Shown: positions 5,253-32,838 of the stretch, in pieces
Layout: each line of letters starts with the position of its first letter
Numbering within the stretch: position 1 is the first letter of the stretch
Assembly (NCBI GenBank): GCA_938003925.1
Contig: CALKWQ010000023.1
Span: 82,885-146,884 of the forward strand
Origin: an uncultured bacterium
GTDB taxonomy: Bacteria > Patescibacteriota > Patescibacteriia > Patescibacteriales > UBA12465
Length of the DNA stretch: 64,000 nt
Reading direction: 5' to 3'
Made by a program: the position numbers and the translations under genes
The notes under the pieces: model-generated
Told to the model about the DNA's origin: nothing
The model's database searches: none
Seen by the model: only the letters and a program-made list of their open reading frames with translations

Positions 5253-5651
5253 ATGCTTTGCTCTAAAATAGCTAGAAGCGTATCCTTTTTTATCTTAACT
5301 AGCCTGCTGACAGCTGGTTTTTTTAGTATCGCCCCTACAGCTTCGGCAGACGATGATTACGGGCTAACGACCAGCGCTGGTAAAGTTAGCGCCTTCTCTA
5401 ATCAAATAGCTAATTATAATGACAATTTCTTAAGCACTCGTGCAGGTGTGATTATTGGCATAATTTTATCATTTGTCGGAGTTATCTTTTTAGTGCTCAT
5501 GATTTATGCTGGCTTAATGTGGATGACAGCCCAAGGCAATCAAGAAAGAGTAAACAAAGCGAAAGACCTAATGATTAATGCGGTTATTGGTTTAATCATC
5601 GTCATGGCTGCTTATGCTATTACTTCTTTTGTCGGCCAAAGATTAACTTAA
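5253..5651 (+). CDS. VirB2/TrbC-like small pilin, paralog 2
   Basis: LMWMTAQGNQERVNKAKDLMINAVIGLIIVMAAY; signal peptide; two TM helices. Confidence 0.65.
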   Translation: MLCSKIARSVSFFILTSLLTAGFFSIAPTASADDDYGLTTSAGKVSAFSNQIANYNDNFLSTRAGVIIGIILSFVGVIFLVLMIYAGLMWMTAQGNQERVNKAKDLMINAVIGLIIVMAAYAITSFVGQRLT

Positions 5652-5658
5652 TATTTCT

Positions 5659-6045
5659 ATGACCTTGCGCAAGCTGATTATTAGCACCTTCATGATGTTT
5701 GCCTTAATCTTTCCCATGAGTGGTGTCTTTGCTCAAACCTATAATTTTAACCAGAACAGTGGCCTTAACCATACCAGCAACACTGCCGGTTTTAATAGCA
5801 CTGACACCAGTCTAGAAAGATATATTACCATTATTATTAATATTATTCTTTCTTTATTGGGTGTAGTGTTTTTAGGTTTAATGATTTACGGCGGCATCGT
5901 GTGGATGACCGCTCAAGGCAATGAAGATAAGGTAAAAAAAGCCAAAGAGTTAATTACAGAAGCTGTTATTGGTTTAATTATTGTACTAGCTGCTTACGCT
6001 ATTACCTACTTTGTCCTTAAGTTAACTAGCGGCTCCTTGGTTTAA
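5659..6045 (+). CDS. VirB2/TrbC-like small pilin, paralog 3
   Basis: IVWMTAQGNEDKVKKAKELITEAVIGLIIVLAAY. 7-nt gap to the previous gene. Confidence 0.65.
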   Translation: MTLRKLIISTFMMFALIFPMSGVFAQTYNFNQNSGLNHTSNTAGFNSTDTSLERYITIIINIILSLLGVVFLGLMIYGGIVWMTAQGNEDKVKKAKELITEAVIGLIIVLAAYAITYFVLKLTSGSLV

Positions 6046-6054
6046 AAAATAAAA

Positions 6055-6444
6055 ATGACTAAAAATACTAAAAACCAATCTATTTTCTGGTCCACCTTAT
6101 CAATACTGTCTTTATTGCCAACAACAGCCTGGGCGGCCAACCTTCAGGATGCTTTTAAAAATGATAATTCTCCTCTAAAGGTGGCGGCTATCGGTGGTGG
6201 CATTTATCGTGAAGGCGTTATGCTAGAATCCATAGCCGGACAAATTATCACTGGCATTTTCTCTTTTTTGGGTATTATTTTTGTTGCTTTTACCATCTAT
6301 GGCGGCTTTCTCTACATGAATGCGCGTGGTAATGAGGAACAAACAAAAAAGGCCACCTCTATTATTACCCAAGCTTTAATCGGCTTAGTAATAATCTTAG
6401 CCGCCTACGCCATCACTTATTTTATTTTTAAATTCTTTGTCTAA
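6055..6444 (+). CDS. VirB2/TrbC-like small pilin, paralog 4
   Basis: FLYMNARGNEEQTKKATSIITQALIGLVIILAAY. Confidence 0.65.
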   Translation: MTKNTKNQSIFWSTLSILSLLPTTAWAANLQDAFKNDNSPLKVAAIGGGIYREGVMLESIAGQIITGIFSFLGIIFVAFTIYGGFLYMNARGNEEQTKKATSIITQALIGLVIILAAYAITYFIFKFFV

Positions 6445-6453
6445 TCATCTAGT

Positions 6454-6888
6454 ATGAAATTCAAAAACTTCAAGCCAGTAGCCACTCTTTTCGTTCTTAC
6501 TTTAGTGATGATTTTGCCTTATTTTGTGTTCGCCCAAGAAGCGCAAACCAACGGACAAGTCATTAACACTACCGGCCCCGCCAATCCCATCAACATGTTA
6601 CAAAATGTAGCCACCGGCAACAGCGGTCCTTATGGCTCTACCGATGAAAACACTTTGCCGACCATTTTGGGCTATATAATTAATGGCGCTTTAAGTTTAT
6701 TAGGTATCATCTTTATCGTCCTAATGGTCTTAGCTGGCTATAACTGGATGATGGCTTCCGGTAATGAGCAAAGAGTAGAAGAGGCTAAAGATACGATTAA
6801 ACGCGCTATCATTGGTCTAGTAATTGTCTTGGGATCATGGGCTATTTGGAACTTTATCTTATCCAATATCATTGAAAGACTAAAATAA
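6454..6888 (+). CDS. VirB2/TrbC-like small pilin, paralog 5
   Basis: YNWMMASGNEQRVEEAKDTIKRAIIGLVIVLGSW. Confidence 0.65.
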   Translation: MKFKNFKPVATLFVLTLVMILPYFVFAQEAQTNGQVINTTGPANPINMLQNVATGNSGPYGSTDENTLPTILGYIINGALSLLGIIFIVLMVLAGYNWMMASGNEQRVEEAKDTIKRAIIGLVIVLGSWAIWNFILSNIIERLK

Positions 6889-6889
6889 T

Positions 6890-7294
6890 ATGCGCACCCT
6901 CAAACATCTCATTGCCACTATCGCTTTAATCCTAATACCTCTAACTAGCGTTTGGGCTCAGACTGCTAGTAATACCCTAGTTGATACTATTAATAAGCCT
7001 ACTCAAACCATGCTCACCAAATCTGGTTTGGGTAATTTTTCCTTAGGAGTAGTGATTAAAATTGTAATTCAAGGCGCCTTAAGCCTGCTCGGTATTGTTT
7101 TCTTAGTTATTATTGTCTTCGCTGGCTATCGTTGGATGACTGCTGCCGGCAATGAGGATTCCATCAAGAAATCTCAAGACATGATTAAGCGCGCTATCAT
7201 TGGTCTGGTAATTATTTTTATGGCCTACGGTATCACCTATTTTGTCTTCCGCATGTTGCCATTTAGCGGCGGCGGCCAACCACCAGTTGGCTAA
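6890..7294 (+). CDS. VirB2/TrbC-like small pilin, paralog 6
   Basis: YRWMTAAGNEDSIKKSQDMIKRAIIGLVIIFMAY. 1-nt gap to paralog 5. Confidence 0.65.
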   Translation: MRTLKHLIATIALILIPLTSVWAQTASNTLVDTINKPTQTMLTKSGLGNFSLGVVIKIVIQGALSLLGIVFLVIIVFAGYRWMTAAGNEDSIKKSQDMIKRAIIGLVIIFMAYGITYFVFRMLPFSGGGQPPVG

Positions 7295-18704: not shown

Positions 18705-18845
18705 AAAAAAATAATATTTTTAATTTGGTGAGAGACTATCATTATACTATTACTAAGCACAAAAAGCAAAAAGAGATATTTTATTAAATATTAGCCAATA
18801 AATATTATGATAAACCAATTTTATCTAATATTTAACAATAATAAT

Positions 18846-18955
18846 TGTTCTACGCAGAACATTATTACACATTAAACCCTGCTTTAGCTATTTGTTCTAC
18901 GTAGAACATTATTACACATTAAACCCCGCTTTAGCTATTTGTTCTACGTAGAACA
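18846..18955. repeat. 47-bp tandem direct repeat (2.3 units), each unit starting with a parS-like 16-bp palindrome
   Basis: Palindromes at 18846-18861 (TGTTCTACGCAGAACA, 1 mismatch), 18893-18908 and 18940-18955 (both perfect TGTTCTACGTAGAACA). Spacing is exactly 47 bp. Confidence 0.9.
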
Positions 18956-19252: not shown

Positions 19253-19258
19253 TGAATG

Positions 19259-19332
19259 TGGACCATAAGGGACTTGAACCCTTGACCTCTTCCATGCCAT
19301 GGAAGCGCTCTAGCCAACTGAGCTAATGGCCC
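19259..19332 (-). tRNA. tRNA-Ala (anticodon GGC)
   Basis: Acceptor GGGCCAT with a G3:U70 pair, anticodon stem CTTCC/GGAAG, 7-nt loop ATGGCAT giving GGC. Confidence 0.75.
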
Positions 19333-29898: not shown

Positions 29899-29929
29899 CT
29901 TGTTAGAGAATATTAATCAATTATTATAT

Positions 29930-30118
29930 ATGGAAAATAAGAAGAAAGCGGCCGTTTCCGCTTTAAAAAAGACGATGGCCACAGCTATTAAGCCTAAGGT
30001 AGTTAAGAAAGCTCCGGTAGCTAAGAAAAAAACCAGAGAAGAAATTGAAGAGATGTTTGCTTTCAGTTTTGGTTGCGATTGTAGCTCTTGCGGTCATCAT
30101 TGTGGCGATCACAAGTAG
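29930..30118 (+). CDS. small Lys-rich protein with a C-terminal Cys/His cluster (possible metal-binding peptide)
   Basis: MENKKKAAVSALKK...KKKTREEIEEMFAFSFGCDCSSCGHHCGDHK. The track TTG at 29900 starts 1 nt after the tRNA, so I prefer the ATG at 29930. Confidence 0.4.
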   Translation: MENKKKAAVSALKKTMATAIKPKVVKKAPVAKKKTREEIEEMFAFSFGCDCSSCGHHCGDHK

Positions 30119-30141: not shown

Positions 30142-30213
30142 GGTGCCTATGGTGTAGTGGTAACACAGCAGGTTGTGGTCCTGTTATTTCGGGTTCGATT
30201 CCCGATAGGCACC
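30142..30213 (+). tRNA. tRNA-His (anticodon GUG) with encoded G-1 and C73
   Basis: G-1, acceptor GTGCCTA/TAGGCAC, D stem GTGT/ACAC, anticodon stem GCAGG/CCTGT, loop TTGTGGT. Confidence 0.85.
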
Positions 30214-30230
30214 CCCAAAGGGAATGTATA

Positions 30231-30264
30231 AAAATAACTCTAATATTAGAGTTATTTTTATTTT
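30231..30264 (+). terminator. type-A hairpin/terminator (left end of cassette 1)
   Basis: AAAATAACTCTA-ATAT-TAGAGTTATTTT followed by a T run. Near-identical copy at 31550-31584. Confidence 0.75.
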
Positions 30265-30299
30265 AGACTAGCTAGACCCCTAACGGGAAGACAAACTAA

Positions 30300-30328
30300 T
30301 TGACAGAAGATGATAAAGGTTATATAAA
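30300..30328 (+). promoter_or_regulatory. cassette 1 promoter (TTGACA-17-TATAAA)
   Basis: Read directly. Homologous promoter at 31619-31647. Confidence 0.55.
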
Positions 30329-30372
30329 TATATAAAATTAATTTTCGCAGTAGTAACTTAAAATCAATAATC

Positions 30373-30762
30373 ATGAAAAAAATTGCGGTAATCATAGATT
30401 CTAAATCTATAAGATTGTCTCTCGGTAAACTATTGAAGTGGAGGGGTTTTGATGTTTTCTTTTTTGAGAGCGAAAAGGATACAAAAGAACAGATTAAGCA
30501 TATCGATGTTCTTATTATTGATCCTTTTATACCCACTGAGTATTTAAACAACCCTAATTTTCCAGTAAGTCGAGGGTATGAAGCTGGCGTGTATTTAATA
30601 AAAGAATGTCAGAAAATTAATCCGGGGCTTGATGTGTTGATATATTCATCAATTTCTGTAGAAGGCATAAAACTAGCTGGATTATCGGAACTTATTGCAA
30701 AAAAAAGCATGATTATGCCGGAAAAATTTGAAGACATATTAGAAAGGATTACGACGGGCTAA
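30373..30762 (+). CDS. stand-alone CheY-like receiver domain protein (divergent)
   Basis: IAVIIDS near the N-terminus, DVLIIDPFIP (phospho-acceptor Asp position), and a beta-alpha alternation of receiver length (129 aa). Confidence 0.45.
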   Translation: MKKIAVIIDSKSIRLSLGKLLKWRGFDVFFFESEKDTKEQIKHIDVLIIDPFIPTEYLNNPNFPVSRGYEAGVYLIKECQKINPGLDVLIYSSISVEGIKLAGLSELIAKKSMIMPEKFEDILERITTG

Positions 30763-30777
30763 GTAACTCAAAAAGCT

Positions 30778-30810
30778 AAAGCCTGTGATTTTACATCGCA
30801 GGCTTTTTTA
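30778..30810 (+). terminator. intrinsic terminator of the cassette 1 gene
   Basis: GCCTGTGAT-TTTAC-ATCGCAGGC followed by TTTTTT. Confidence 0.75.
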
Positions 30811-30815
30811 TATCA

Positions 30816-30869
30816 ATTTACCAAATATTCCATCAAAACAGTTTTCCAAGTTTTGCGTTTAGCCACCCC
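30816..30869 (+). repeat. 54-nt junction repeat R, copy a
   Basis: ATTTACCAAATATTCCATCAAAACAGTTTTCCAAGTTTTGCGTTTAGCCACCCC. The last 10 nt match the tRNA-His 3' end at 9/10. Confidence 0.9.
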
Positions 30870-30875
30870 AGTTGG

Positions 30876-30903
30876 AAAAGACGAGTCTAAAAGCTCGTTT
30901 TTC
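30876..30903 (+). terminator. type-B hairpin/terminator (left end of cassette 2)
   Basis: ACGAG-TCTAAAAG-CTCGT followed by TTTTT. Copy at 32100-32128. Confidence 0.55.
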
Positions 30904-30954
30904 TGTTATATAATGGCAAAAATATGGTTTGCGAGAATTGACAATCTGAATTAA

Positions 30955-30983
30955 TTGACAAAAGACAATTAATATGATATACT
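30955..30983 (+). promoter_or_regulatory. cassette 2 promoter (TTGACA-17-TATACT)
   Basis: Read directly. A second TTGACA lies at 30938. Confidence 0.55.
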
Positions 30984-31092
30984 CTTATGTTATATAGTTC
31001 ATTCACAAGAAATAATAAGGTTAATTATCAAGTTTATTATAATTAGTAGATTTAACAATTAATCTTATTATTTAACATAAATATAAATAAAA

Positions 31093-31251
31093 ATGGAATT
31101 ATCATTAATTATCCTGGCAAACATAAGCTCAGGGTTTACTTTGTATTTTGCTATCAAAAAGCAAACCAAAAAAACATGGATTGCTTGGACTTTTACAGTC
31201 GTCTTTATCCTGGCTGTATTAGGACTACAAACACTTGGACTGCGATGGTAA
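31093..31251 (+). CDS. 52-aa two-TM membrane peptide (below the track cutoff)
   Basis: My translation: MELSLIILANISSGFTLYFAIKKQTKKTWIAWTFTVVFILAVLGLQTLGLRW. Promoter upstream and terminator downstream. Confidence 0.45.
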   Translation: MELSLIILANISSGFTLYFAIKKQTKKTWIAWTFTVVFILAVLGLQTLGLRW

Positions 31252-31276
31252 ATTTAATGACCTCCTCCCCGCACTC

Positions 31277-31306
31277 AAAAAGCTATCCTAATCGGATAGC
31301 TTTTTT
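31277..31306 (+). terminator. intrinsic terminator
   Basis: AGCTATCC-TAATC-GGATAGCT followed by TTTTTT. Confidence 0.75.
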
Positions 31307-31440
31307 CATACGGGGTTTCCTTTCGGGTCACGCTTCGCGTTAAGGCCTCCGCAATACTACGGGCGTCATTCATCCCCGCACTCGCGCTCCCGCTTCGCGG
31401 TTCGCCAATGAATACTCGTGCGGGGTTTCCTGACTATTTA
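31307..31440. other. GC-rich island with interleaved direct and inverted repeats (candidate structured RNA or recombination scar)
   Basis: CCCCGCACTC twice (31267, 31374), CGGGGTTTCCT twice (31311, 31421), CGCTTCGCG twice (31331, 31391). GTGCGGGG (31418) is complementary to both CCCCGCAC copies. Confidence 0.4.
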
Positions 31441-31447
31441 AAAACAC

Positions 31448-31480
31448 GTCCTGAATATTAAATTAATTCAGGACTTTTTA
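31448..31480. terminator. intrinsic terminator preceding R copy b
   Basis: GTCCTGAAT-loop-ATTCAGGAC followed by TTTTT. Confidence 0.7.
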
Positions 31481-31534
31481 ATTTACCAAATAATCTATCA
31501 AAAAAGTTTTCCAAGTTTTGCACTTAGCCACCCC
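31481..31534 (+). repeat. 54-nt junction repeat R, copy b
   Basis: 5 differences from copy a over 54 nt. Ends in TTAGCCACCCC. Confidence 0.9.
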
Positions 31535-31549
31535 TAAAGGGAATGTATG

Positions 31550-31584
31550 AAAATAACTCTAATATTAGAGTTATTTTTATTTTA
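31550..31584 (+). terminator. type-A hairpin/terminator (left end of cassette 3)
   Basis: Same hairpin as 30231-30264. Confidence 0.75.
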
Positions 31585-31618
31585 GACTAGCTAAACCACC
31601 AATGGGAAGACAAACTAA

Positions 31619-31647
31619 TTGACAAAATTAAATCAATGTGTTATAGT
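31619..31647 (+). promoter_or_regulatory. cassette 3 promoter (TTGACA-17-TATAGT)
   Basis: Read directly. Confidence 0.55.
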
Positions 31648-31741
31648 GTTTTGTTACACAGTTCATTTACAAATAACAATTAGGTTAATTATCAAGTTTA
31701 TTATAATTAATAGATTTAATAATTAACCTAAATTAGTAATA

Positions 31742-31981
31742 ATGGAAACACAAGAAAAAAAAGCCGATGGCATTGGCCCAGGCACGGCAGTAATCATTTT
31801 TATTGGGTTGGTTATTTGGGGTTCGATAGAATCCAAATATATGCCCTTGAAAGGGTTTAGATCGCTTTTCGATAACACCTGGATGTTAATCGAAGAAGTG
31901 TTTCTCCCGGCACTGCTGATCTCAATAATAGCGGGAATTTTTATTTCCCTGGCGGCCCACCTGATATACAGGGAGTTATAA
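31742..31981 (+). CDS. 79-aa two-TM membrane protein, unknown function
   Basis: Track ORF with two hydrophobic helices. Preceded by the shared leader and followed by a terminator. Confidence 0.5.
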   Translation: METQEKKADGIGPGTAVIIFIGLVIWGSIESKYMPLKGFRSLFDNTWMLIEEVFLPALLISIIAGIFISLAAHLIYREL

Positions 31982-32005
31982 TTTTTACTGCTAAAAGTTT
32001 TTGTT

Positions 32006-32034
32006 AAAGGAGCTAAGAAATTAGCTCTTTTTTA
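32006..32034 (+). terminator. intrinsic terminator of the cassette 3 gene
   Basis: GAGCTAA-GAAA-TTAGCTC followed by TTTTTT. Confidence 0.7.
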
Positions 32035-32039
32035 TATCA

Positions 32040-32093
32040 ATTTACCAAACATTCAATCAAAATAGTTTTCCAAGTTTTGTAGTTAGTTACCCC
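32040..32093 (+). repeat. 54-nt junction repeat R, copy c
   Basis: 8 differences from copy a. Ends in TTAGTTACCCC. Confidence 0.9.
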
Positions 32094-32099
32094 AGCTGG

Positions 32100-32128
32100 A
32101 AAAGACGAGTCTAAAAGCTCGTTTTTTT
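32100..32128 (+). terminator. type-B hairpin/terminator (left end of cassette 4)
   Basis: Same hairpin as 30876-30903. Confidence 0.55.
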
Positions 32129-32202
32129 GTTATATAAGAGAGAAAATATGGTTTGCCAAAATAATTTATTGACATTTTTAGATGATTTGTTAAAGTATAA
32201 TC

Positions 32203-32313
32203 CTTCCAATCAGTGTAGGATAAAACCGAACAACGAGGCGCAAGTGGGCGCCTACAAGAGTTTAAAAAACTTAGAGACTGATTGCCATAGAGATCTTAAT
32301 TGATCTCTTTTTA
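32203..32313 (+). ncRNA. candidate small RNA (promoter-to-terminator unit); the alternative reading is a 51-aa ORF at 32148-32303
   Basis: TTGACA at 32169 with TAAAGT/TATAAT 16-21 nt later. Outer stem CAATCAG (32207) / CTGATTG (32278) encloses the GC hairpin AGGCGC-AAGTGG-GCGCCT (32236-32253). Terminator AGAGATC-TTAATT-GATCTCT followed by TTTTT (32289-32313). Confidence 0.3.
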
Positions 32314-32319
32314 TTTATT

Positions 32320-32373
32320 TAAAATCAAATACTCCATCAAAATAGTTTTCCAAGTTTTGCGATTAGCCGCCCA
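32320..32373 (+). repeat. 54-nt junction repeat R, copy d (most diverged)
   Basis: The core ATCAAAATAGTTTTCCAAGTTTTGCGATTAGCCGCCC is conserved and the 5' part has diverged. Confidence 0.8.
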
Positions 32374-32378
32374 TCAAG

Positions 32379-32407
32379 AATAACCCAATTTTAAAGGGTT
32401 ATTTTTA
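32379..32407 (+). terminator. type-C hairpin/terminator after R copy d (possibly the ancestral tRNA-His terminator)
   Basis: AATAACCC-loop-GGGTTATT followed by TTTT. Confidence 0.65.
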
Positions 32408-32472: not shown

Positions 32473-32838
32473 ATGAATAAATCAATATATAAAAAATTTT
32501 TAGTCTTATGTTTTTTAATTTGTGTTTTGTTTTTTTGGGGGGCTGTATTAAGTCCAGATTTTAACATAAGGAAAGGCGTTGCGCTTATTATTTTAGACAT
32601 GAGCAAAGAGGAGTTGGCCAAAACGTATGAGAAAGATAATACTTTTTGCTTGATTGATAGCGACTGCGTCATCCAGGAGGACTGTTATTGCTGTACTGGC
32701 AATATGGCTGTAAATAAGTATAATTATAAGAATGTTGGTTGTGATAAAAATAGAGCAATCTGTGAAGCTATTTGTCCTCCTCAAGAATTATCGTGTGCAC
32801 ACAATATATGTGTTTTGAAAGATTTAACCCATTACTAA
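32473..32838 (+). CDS. small secreted Cys-rich protein (12 Cys in the C-terminal 75 aa)
   Basis: N-terminal hydrophobic signal/anchor followed by CLIDSDCVIQEDCYCCTG...CDKNRAICEAICPPQELSCAHNIC. Confidence 0.5.
   Translation: MNKSIYKKFLVLCFLICVLFFWGAVLSPDFNIRKGVALIILDMSKEELAKTYEKDNTFCLIDSDCVIQEDCYCCTGNMAVNKYNYKNVGCDKNRAICEAICPPQELSCAHNICVLKDLTHY

Follow-up and report, generated by a model that had tools for sequence, protein, structure and literature searches.

Integron cassette arrays, CALIN arrays included, are built from attI, attC and IntI; their attC site is a folded imperfect palindrome conserved in structure, their cassettes are mostly promoterless, and their fixed site is attI, beside intI. 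The tycheposons of Prochlorococcus are tRNA-targeted integrative elements, or additive genomic islands, which insert at the 3' end of a tRNA gene, leave the tRNA intact, push older units further in, carry partial tRNA repeats at their junctions and bring accessory and defence cargo (bioRxiv 10.1101/2020.12.28.424599). The PeSL of T4-type phages are mobile regulatory cassettes, conserved terminator-plus-promoter composites that flank orphan genes in hyperplastic regions and form insulated, shufflable modules (PMC2839356, PMC4122927); they lie in phage genomes, exchange by homology at variable points and have no tie to a tRNA gene.

The locus described here lies in a window of 64,000 nt (the window being the whole stretch of DNA that was analysed), which is ordinary chromosome, with dnaA, dnaN, nusA, infC and tmRNA present. 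A repeat finder returned from it four direct copies of a 55-nt repeat, R, on the plus strand; the 24-nt core of R, ATCAAAANAGTTTTCCAAGTTTTG, occurs four times in the window and not once in 100 shuffles, and an nhmmer search of the window found no degenerate copies beyond these four. The copies punctuate an array that begins at the 3' end of a tRNA-His gene, the proposed chromosomal attachment point (attB- or attI-like). With integrons this array shares small co-oriented cassettes at one chromosomal site, each closed by an element resembling a recombination site, and the recurrence of the same cassette at varying positions and in various genomes. As with CALIN arrays, there is no integrase nearby: among the ORFs scanned, none of IntI type adjoins the array, and the upstream neighbours are TrmH and tRNA-Arg. 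Unlike attC, however, R is conserved in sequence (85-95%) and has no hairpin potential; the cassettes examined carry a promoter and a terminator of their own, and the place of attI is taken by the 3' end of a tRNA gene. The traits listed above for tycheposons all have counterparts here, including the two marks of a tRNA-targeted island, a position 3' of the tRNA and direct repeats of a tRNA 3' segment at junctions. Elements of that kind encode an integrase of their own and often replication genes as well; the units here, in contrast, are tiny (median 0.7 kb), with no integrase or replication genes in any cassette scanned, the 6.6-kb cassette of locus L059 included. The junctions carry a 54-bp sequence of their own, tRNA-like in its last 11-12 nt only, and the hosts are mostly Patescibacteria. 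PeSL-type composites also have their match, in modules of a hairpin and a TTGACA promoter that are conserved across loci and accompany mostly orphan ORFs, but this locus has in addition R, which is 54 bp long and non-regulatory, and a junction that is fixed at the 3' end of tRNA-His. Literature searches gave no earlier description of a tRNA-His/R cassette system in CPR bacteria.

The features of the array in the window are as follows; a caret marks the junction here and below.

30142-30217, plus strand: tRNA-His(GTG) gene (ARAGORN, Rfam); 3' end ..ATAGGCACC^CCC
30218-30869, plus strand: cassette 1, ending with R copy a
30230-30259, plus strand: type-A hairpin of cassette 1
30300-30305, plus strand: TTGACA of cassette 1, accompanied by the ACCCCTAACGGGAAG motif
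30373-30762, plus strand: ORF of cassette 1, 129 aa, without Pfam match
30778-30806, plus strand: terminator of cassette 1, a hairpin and T run upstream of R copy a
30815-30869, plus strand: R copy a, a cassette-end site; ends ..TTTAGCCACCCC; nhmmer 62.5 bits
30870-31534, plus strand: cassette 2, ending with R copy b
30877-30902, plus strand: type-B hairpin of cassette 2, with T run, 3' of R copy a
30955-30983, plus strand: promoter of cassette 2, a conserved leader next to it
31093-31251, plus strand: ORF of cassette 2, 52 aa
about 31255-31447: GC-rich island of cassette 2
31448-31479, plus strand: terminator of cassette 2 (hairpin 31448-31474 and T5), read from the sequence, 5' of R copy b
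31480-31534, plus strand: R copy b (repeat finder, nhmmer)
31535-32093, plus strand: cassette 3, ending with R copy c
31550-31579, plus strand: type-A hairpin of cassette 3, with T run, 3' of R copy b
31619-31647, plus strand: promoter of cassette 3, leader next to it
31742-31981, plus strand: ORF of cassette 3, 79 aa
32010-32033, plus strand: terminator of cassette 3 (hairpin 32010-32027 and T6), read from the sequence, 5' of R copy c
32039-32093, plus strand: R copy c, most diverged of the four; ..GTTAGTTACCCC (repeat finder, nhmmer)
32094-32373, plus strand: cassette 4, family F6, ending with R copy d
32101-32126, plus strand: type-B hairpin of cassette 4, with T run, 3' of R copy c
32169-32196, plus strand: promoter of cassette 4, TTGACA-16-TAAAGT
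about 110 nt ending in the next terminator, plus strand: sRNA-like cargo of cassette 4
32289-32308, plus strand: terminator of cassette 4, hairpin and T run, 5' of R copy d
32319-32373, plus strand: R copy d, with degenerate 5' end; 3' end ..ATTAGCCGCCCA (repeat finder, nhmmer)
32379-32406, plus strand: type-C hairpin with T run, 3' of R copy d; a variant of the type-A family that opens the next unit
32473-32838, plus strand: ORF of the unit after R copy d

A cassette, defined as the DNA from one junction through the end of the following R, has a constant layout: a terminator hairpin, then (in the cassettes examined) a sigma-70-like promoter, then the cargo, with R at the end. The opening hairpin belongs to family A/C/D, to family B or to another; promoters of the form TTGACA-N16-17-TATAxT occur in all four window cassettes and in the A/D-family modules; and the cargo always runs in the direction of the tRNA, comprises one gene, a few genes or a non-coding RNA, and often has its own terminator.

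Several elements within these units were recorded as observations in their own right. Cassette 4 (32169-32312) has no convincing ORF, and its promoter is predicted to give a hairpin-rich transcript of about 110 nt; the RNA region is 83-85% conserved in loci L082 and L062, and its consensus fold comprises a closing stem and three hairpins with four covarying pairs and has no Rfam match, making it a candidate small RNA that rides as cargo. A promoter and a leader of about 100 nt precede the small membrane-protein ORFs of 52 and 79 aa (30941-31092 and 31613-31741); identity is 83% between the two leaders and 74-82% between them and their counterparts in at least 10 other loci, and the leaders may be cis-regulatory 5' UTRs. 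The GC-rich island at 31255-31447 contrasts with the AT-rich DNA around it, separates the 52-aa ORF from the terminator that precedes R copy b and contains an internal inverted repeat; none of the loci compared has a homologue of it, and Rfam gave no match. Just ahead of the -35 box in the A/D-type modules stands the motif ACCCCTAACGGGAAGACAAACTAATTGACA (in the window at 30280-30305 and 31598-31624), whose first half repeats the junction sequence CACCCC^TAAAGGGAA; its counterpart in L002 and L018, TAGC(C)CACCCCTA(G/A)AGGGAA, resembles a second, nested att remnant. Between tRNA-Arg and tRNA-His lies a small Lys-rich ORF with a Cys/His-rich tail (29900-30118), without Pfam match and found in the same place in L014. 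Elsewhere in the window, five tandem ORFs of about 130 aa at 5253-7294, with repeated segments (families D2 and D7; 65-85% identity), appear to be a local paralogue family, and a 47-nt unit occurs twice in tandem with 94% identity at 18842-18935, about 320 nt from tRNA-Ala (19258-19332).

The span 30778-30905, made up of a terminator, R copy a and a second terminator, had given rise to the original observation that R is always bracketed by two terminators. For the window this was borne out, with an independent scan finding a hairpin and T run within about 10 nt upstream of all four copies and others downstream, of type B after copies a and c, type A after b and type C after d, just as had been described; these begin 6-17 nt after R. 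Among homologues the bracket is often one-sided: a terminator-like hairpin lies downstream in 68 of the 75 unique R copies examined but upstream in only 39, and in L031, L033, L034 and L014 R begins directly after the stop codon of the upstream ORF. Nor do the three downstream types lack common sequence, as had been thought, since A and C form one family, AAATAAC(Y)C(Y)..loop..(R)G(R)GTTATTTTT, and only B is unrelated. In the symmetric form AAAAATAAC..GTTATTTTT, the A/C/D hairpins fold at -5 to -19 kcal/mol and have compensatory stem variants (CTCT with AGAG, CCCT with AGGG, CCCC with GGGG, CCAG with CTGG), which together mark them as selected structures; they look like bidirectional terminators. 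The selection for hairpin structure that had been suspected is therefore upheld for this family, and its simplest reason is that each cassette opens with a terminator. The upstream hairpin would be the cargo's own, optional terminator and the downstream one the opening element of the next cassette, required because a new insert must terminate the tRNA gene or the preceding unit; R would thus sit in a transcriptionally quiet gap. The inverted repeat of 8 bp noted earlier in copies a and c, TTTTCCAA with TTGGAAAA, is exact in copy a and reaches 7 of 8 positions in copy c (CTGGAAAA). Among homologues it shows no covariation, since the type-B side varies (GTTTGAAAAAG, CTTGATGAAAAG, AAGCGGAAAAG and others) while TTTTCCAA is nearly fixed.

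The key clue was the earlier remark, which proved correct, that R stands to the hairpin as the tRNA does. A stretch of 121 nt beginning in the tRNA-His 3' end, with the type-A hairpin region, recurs after R copy b in the same register and with 87% identity (repeat family D4). More generally, R and the tRNA-His 3' end are followed by modules of the same families (A/D and B), joined at the same nucleotide, ..CACC^CC(A). By flank clustering, in which some sources are duplicates, family A/D stands 18 times after tRNA-His and 36 times after R, and family B 11 and 29 times, respectively; a small third family is joined to both at that nucleotide as well. Type B directly follows tRNA-His in L003, L014, L016, L018 and L033, type A in the window and L012, and type D in L022. 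The same join reads, for example, ..GGGCACCCCA^GTTGGAAAAGACGAG at the tRNA of L016 and ..AGCCACCCCA^GTTGGAAAAGACGAG at R copy a, and the seam sequence common to both is (G/C)CACC^CC(A).

R ends in ..TTAGCCACCCC(A) and tRNA-His in ..TAGGCACCCC(A). The R terminus, ..TTAGCCACC^CC(A), reproduces the 3' strand of the tRNA-His acceptor with its discriminator base and CCA, and in some lineages the last 11-12 nt of R equal the tRNA-His 3' end, as in L059 and L085, where tRNA-His ends in ..TAGCCACCCCA, identical to the end of R. Upstream of these final 11-12 nt R has no similarity to tRNA-His, and the two have about 8-12 nt in common. Partial tRNA-His 3' ends of 17 nt occur inside the arrays of L028, L044 and L056 and are the classical scar of tRNA-gene integration. 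A GC-rich element of about 180 nt was also seen inside tRNA-His arrays (L028, 1107-1290; also L044, L056 and L083). It is closed by GGGAAT and ATTCCC, ends in a 17-nt partial tRNA-His 3' end and has compensatory changes in 26 of 47 predicted pairs, a count from four sequences only; it has no Rfam match and resembles a mini integrative element or a structured RNA of a kind not described before.

The units between junctions behave as modules with a fixed polarity. The 67 unique cassettes measure 257-6612 bp (median, 690 bp), 62 of them contain an ORF that reaches 40 aa or more, and in all 62 the longest one is on the strand of R and the tRNA. Family F1 is the first unit behind tRNA-His in L012 and L058, but in L055 it follows an R and in L064 it is the fourth unit; family F2 follows tRNA-His in L063 and R in L056 and L049; and cassette 4 of the window (F6) recurs directly after tRNA-His in L082. 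Except in L064, homology among F1 members starts right after CACCC(C), spans the cargo and stops at the end of R, and what follows R differs from genome to genome. Members of F2 and F6 differ in their opening hairpin and are homologous from the promoter onward. The cassettes that separate the R copies show no relationship among themselves. Orphan ORFs, with many small membrane proteins, make up most of the cargo, which is otherwise accessory or defence-like (GNAT, HNH, DUF5677, DUF4236, a methyltransferase, and an EcoRI-like methylase with GmrSD in the 6.6-kb L059 cassette); several cassettes have no ORF and carry a structured RNA. One ORF-less F2 cargo (L056, 6706-6794, minus strand) matches bacterial 23S rRNA positions 2126-2215, which correspond to the L1-stalk region, with 50.4 bits, just at the gathering score; the F2 family with this 23S-like cargo is present also in L063 and L049. 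A Pfam scan of about 60 proteins from the window (most ORFs of at least 110 aa) and from array loci (8-14 kb per locus) gave no integrase or serine-recombinase match, and neither a free circular cassette nor a same-species pair of empty and occupied sites was seen.

An nhmmer profile of R found about 100 copies, 78 of them unique, in 57 sources, mostly labelled Patescibacteria. Fifteen loci with full-length R came from species-representative genomes, with labels that include Falkowbacteria, Parcubacteria, Saccharimonadales and "Patescibacteria group" MAGs, and 41 more from a metagenome scan. Within each source all R copies are on one strand, and all 33 of the 57 sources whose locus sequence includes tRNA-His have it upstream of every R and on the same strand. 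In most of the sources without tRNA-His the sequence stops close to R, at the end of the contig or locus; L054 and L068 hold an R pair with 3.8 kb of upstream DNA without tRNA-His. The upstream genes TrmH and tRNA-Arg are syntenic across R-bearing genomes. TrmH orthologues have 41-80% protein identity to that of the window (all-pairs median, 49%), and R is about 85-95% identical at the DNA level, with indels almost absent and near-invariant positions over about 40 nt. The R score does not fall significantly with distance from the tRNA (rho -0.27, p 0.13), so nothing in the arrays indicates that new cassettes always enter next to the tRNA. No true R turned up in two scans of viral contigs, and these gave no candidate for a vehicle.

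These observations support the model that R is probably an attC/attP-like recombination site at the cassette end, with tRNA-His as the chromosomal attachment site, and not a small RNA. The pattern is that of site-specific integration because unrelated left arms, tRNA and R, join the same right arms at one nucleotide, and because a short common core, strict orientation, modular units and partial tRNA repeats accompany the join. The suggestion, made at the outset as one of two, that R might be insulated in the manner of a recombination site is supported by the interchangeability of R and the tRNA-His 3' end as left partners of the same modules and from the presence of cassettes at differing array positions. 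In the mechanism that we propose, each small mobile gene cassette would finish in R, a conserved and asymmetric element of about 54 bp, and cassettes would be inserted serially, immediately 3' of the tRNA-His gene. A site-specific recombinase, presumably encoded elsewhere, would exchange strands within the CACCCC(A) core, where the exact crossover point would lie, between the R of a free cassette and either a resident R or the 3' end of tRNA-His. Insertion would leave the tRNA intact, the first hairpin of the incoming cassette would become the terminator of the tRNA, and each new unit would displace older ones downstream. The 40 or so upstream bases of R, with the tandem AAGTTTTCC AAGTTTTGC, would be a protein-binding sequence; and the system may be active at present.

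The main rival, which we think unlikely though worth serious attention, is that R is a homology linker like the PeSL of T4-type phages, in which R, terminator and promoter make up a composite of 100-170 bp and genes are shuffled by homologous recombination, for example in exchange after DNA uptake, with no need for a dedicated recombinase or a defined crossover point. PeSL combine a promoter with a stem-loop, flank ORFans and give rise to mini-circles by recombination (PMC2839356). Here too hairpin and promoter modules are conserved across genomes, with orphan genes of uniform orientation next to them; plain homologous recombination could also act through the conserved modules, 100-150 bp long, to either side of the junction, and the lack of a recombinase match among the proteins scanned fits as well. 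Such exchange would nevertheless have to account for two unrelated module families and a small third that join tRNA-His and R at the same nucleotide, although the tRNA-His/R match of 8-12 nt is too short for RecA-type exchange. The near-invariance of R over about 40 nt between genomes whose housekeeping proteins are about 49% identical points instead to sequence-specific recognition, and the 17-nt partial tRNA-His repeats likewise speak against a linker. A repeat derived from a MITE or an IS was rejected as a separate candidate, the copies within each source lying on one strand, co-oriented with tRNA-His wherever the locus sequence includes it, and their alignment lacking a terminal inverted repeat.

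That R acts as a plus-strand RNA element, either the short RNA of about 90 nt ending at the downstream terminator that was originally suggested or a 3'-UTR element of the upstream gene, is very improbable. The frequent downstream hairpin would suit it, as would the cotranscription of R with the upstream gene where the upstream terminator is missing, but half of the copies have a terminator directly upstream, and a plus-strand promoter-like site is found neither upstream of R nor inside it. A promoter-like match of 10 out of 12 on the minus strand (30816-30788) starts at the 5' edge of R copy a and reads away into the upstream terminator. Folding of R alone gave a minimum free energy of 0 to -2.5 kcal/mol (z -1.0 to +1.1) and no structure, the significant folds of longer stretches stemming from the terminator hairpins; the only proposed pairing lacks covariation, as described above, and R has no Rfam match at the gathering threshold or at E<=5. 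R is conserved as primary sequence, and an RNA would leave its interchangeability with tRNA-His unexplained. As a bacterial small RNA gene R was rejected for these reasons: the terminator is present, but the promoter, the structure and the family are not. Still less probable is a minus-strand micro-peptide of 17-18 aa, GVA[K/N]RKTW[K/Q]TFL[M/I][E/D]YL[V/I]N followed by a stop, or the relic of a gene's C-terminal end. The minus frame is open in nearly all copies, usually stops after N and has conservative replacements, with 51% of the variability on the wobble phase (permutation p = 0.014, a weak signal). The same phase, however, fits an open plus frame, for which the synonymous fraction is higher (98/296, against 84/325 on the minus strand); the GTG is directly preceded by GGG, with no spaced Shine-Dalgarno sequence or conserved start context; upstream of the junction the frame enters unrelated hairpin modules; and when 5.8 billion proteins were searched with the concatenated peptide, the yield was a single 50-aa ORF and no longer protein bearing such a tail. 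We keep the open minus frame as an unexplained detail rather than as an explanation. The least probable reading is that the R copies are decayed tRNA-His duplicates or neutral leftovers of local tandem duplication. It has in its favour the tRNA-like final 11-12 nt and the 121-nt repeat after both tRNA-His and R copy b, but the cassettes between copies are unrelated, and R is conserved between distant genomes far beyond neutral DNA. Decay from a tRNA, with the similarity confined to the last 12 nt or so, was rejected, the conservation of R across genomes largely refuting it.

A broader proposal built on the recombination-site model is more tentative than the model itself. The array may be a gene-capture platform of many Patescibacteria that is integron-like and yet built differently, in that the tRNA-His 3' end is the fixed site, R is borne by the cassette, the cassettes express and terminate themselves (some of them encoding structured RNA only), and the recombinase is unlinked. 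Were this so, the near-identity of R in the face of core-protein identity of about 49% would mean that cassettes move between distant CPR lineages.

For the reading of genomes, the case indicates that terminator-bracketed repeats can be the seams of mobile cassettes instead of RNA genes, and cassette arrays explain the frequent assembly breaks just downstream of tRNA-His. For the new genetic systems in Patescibacteria, the tRNA-His site would also be a neutral place of integration that already exists. Reports of mobile elements in CPR bacteria, whose genomes are very small, are few; with a conserved site for cassettes behind tRNA-His, these organisms would have a concrete means of exchanging accessory and defence genes.
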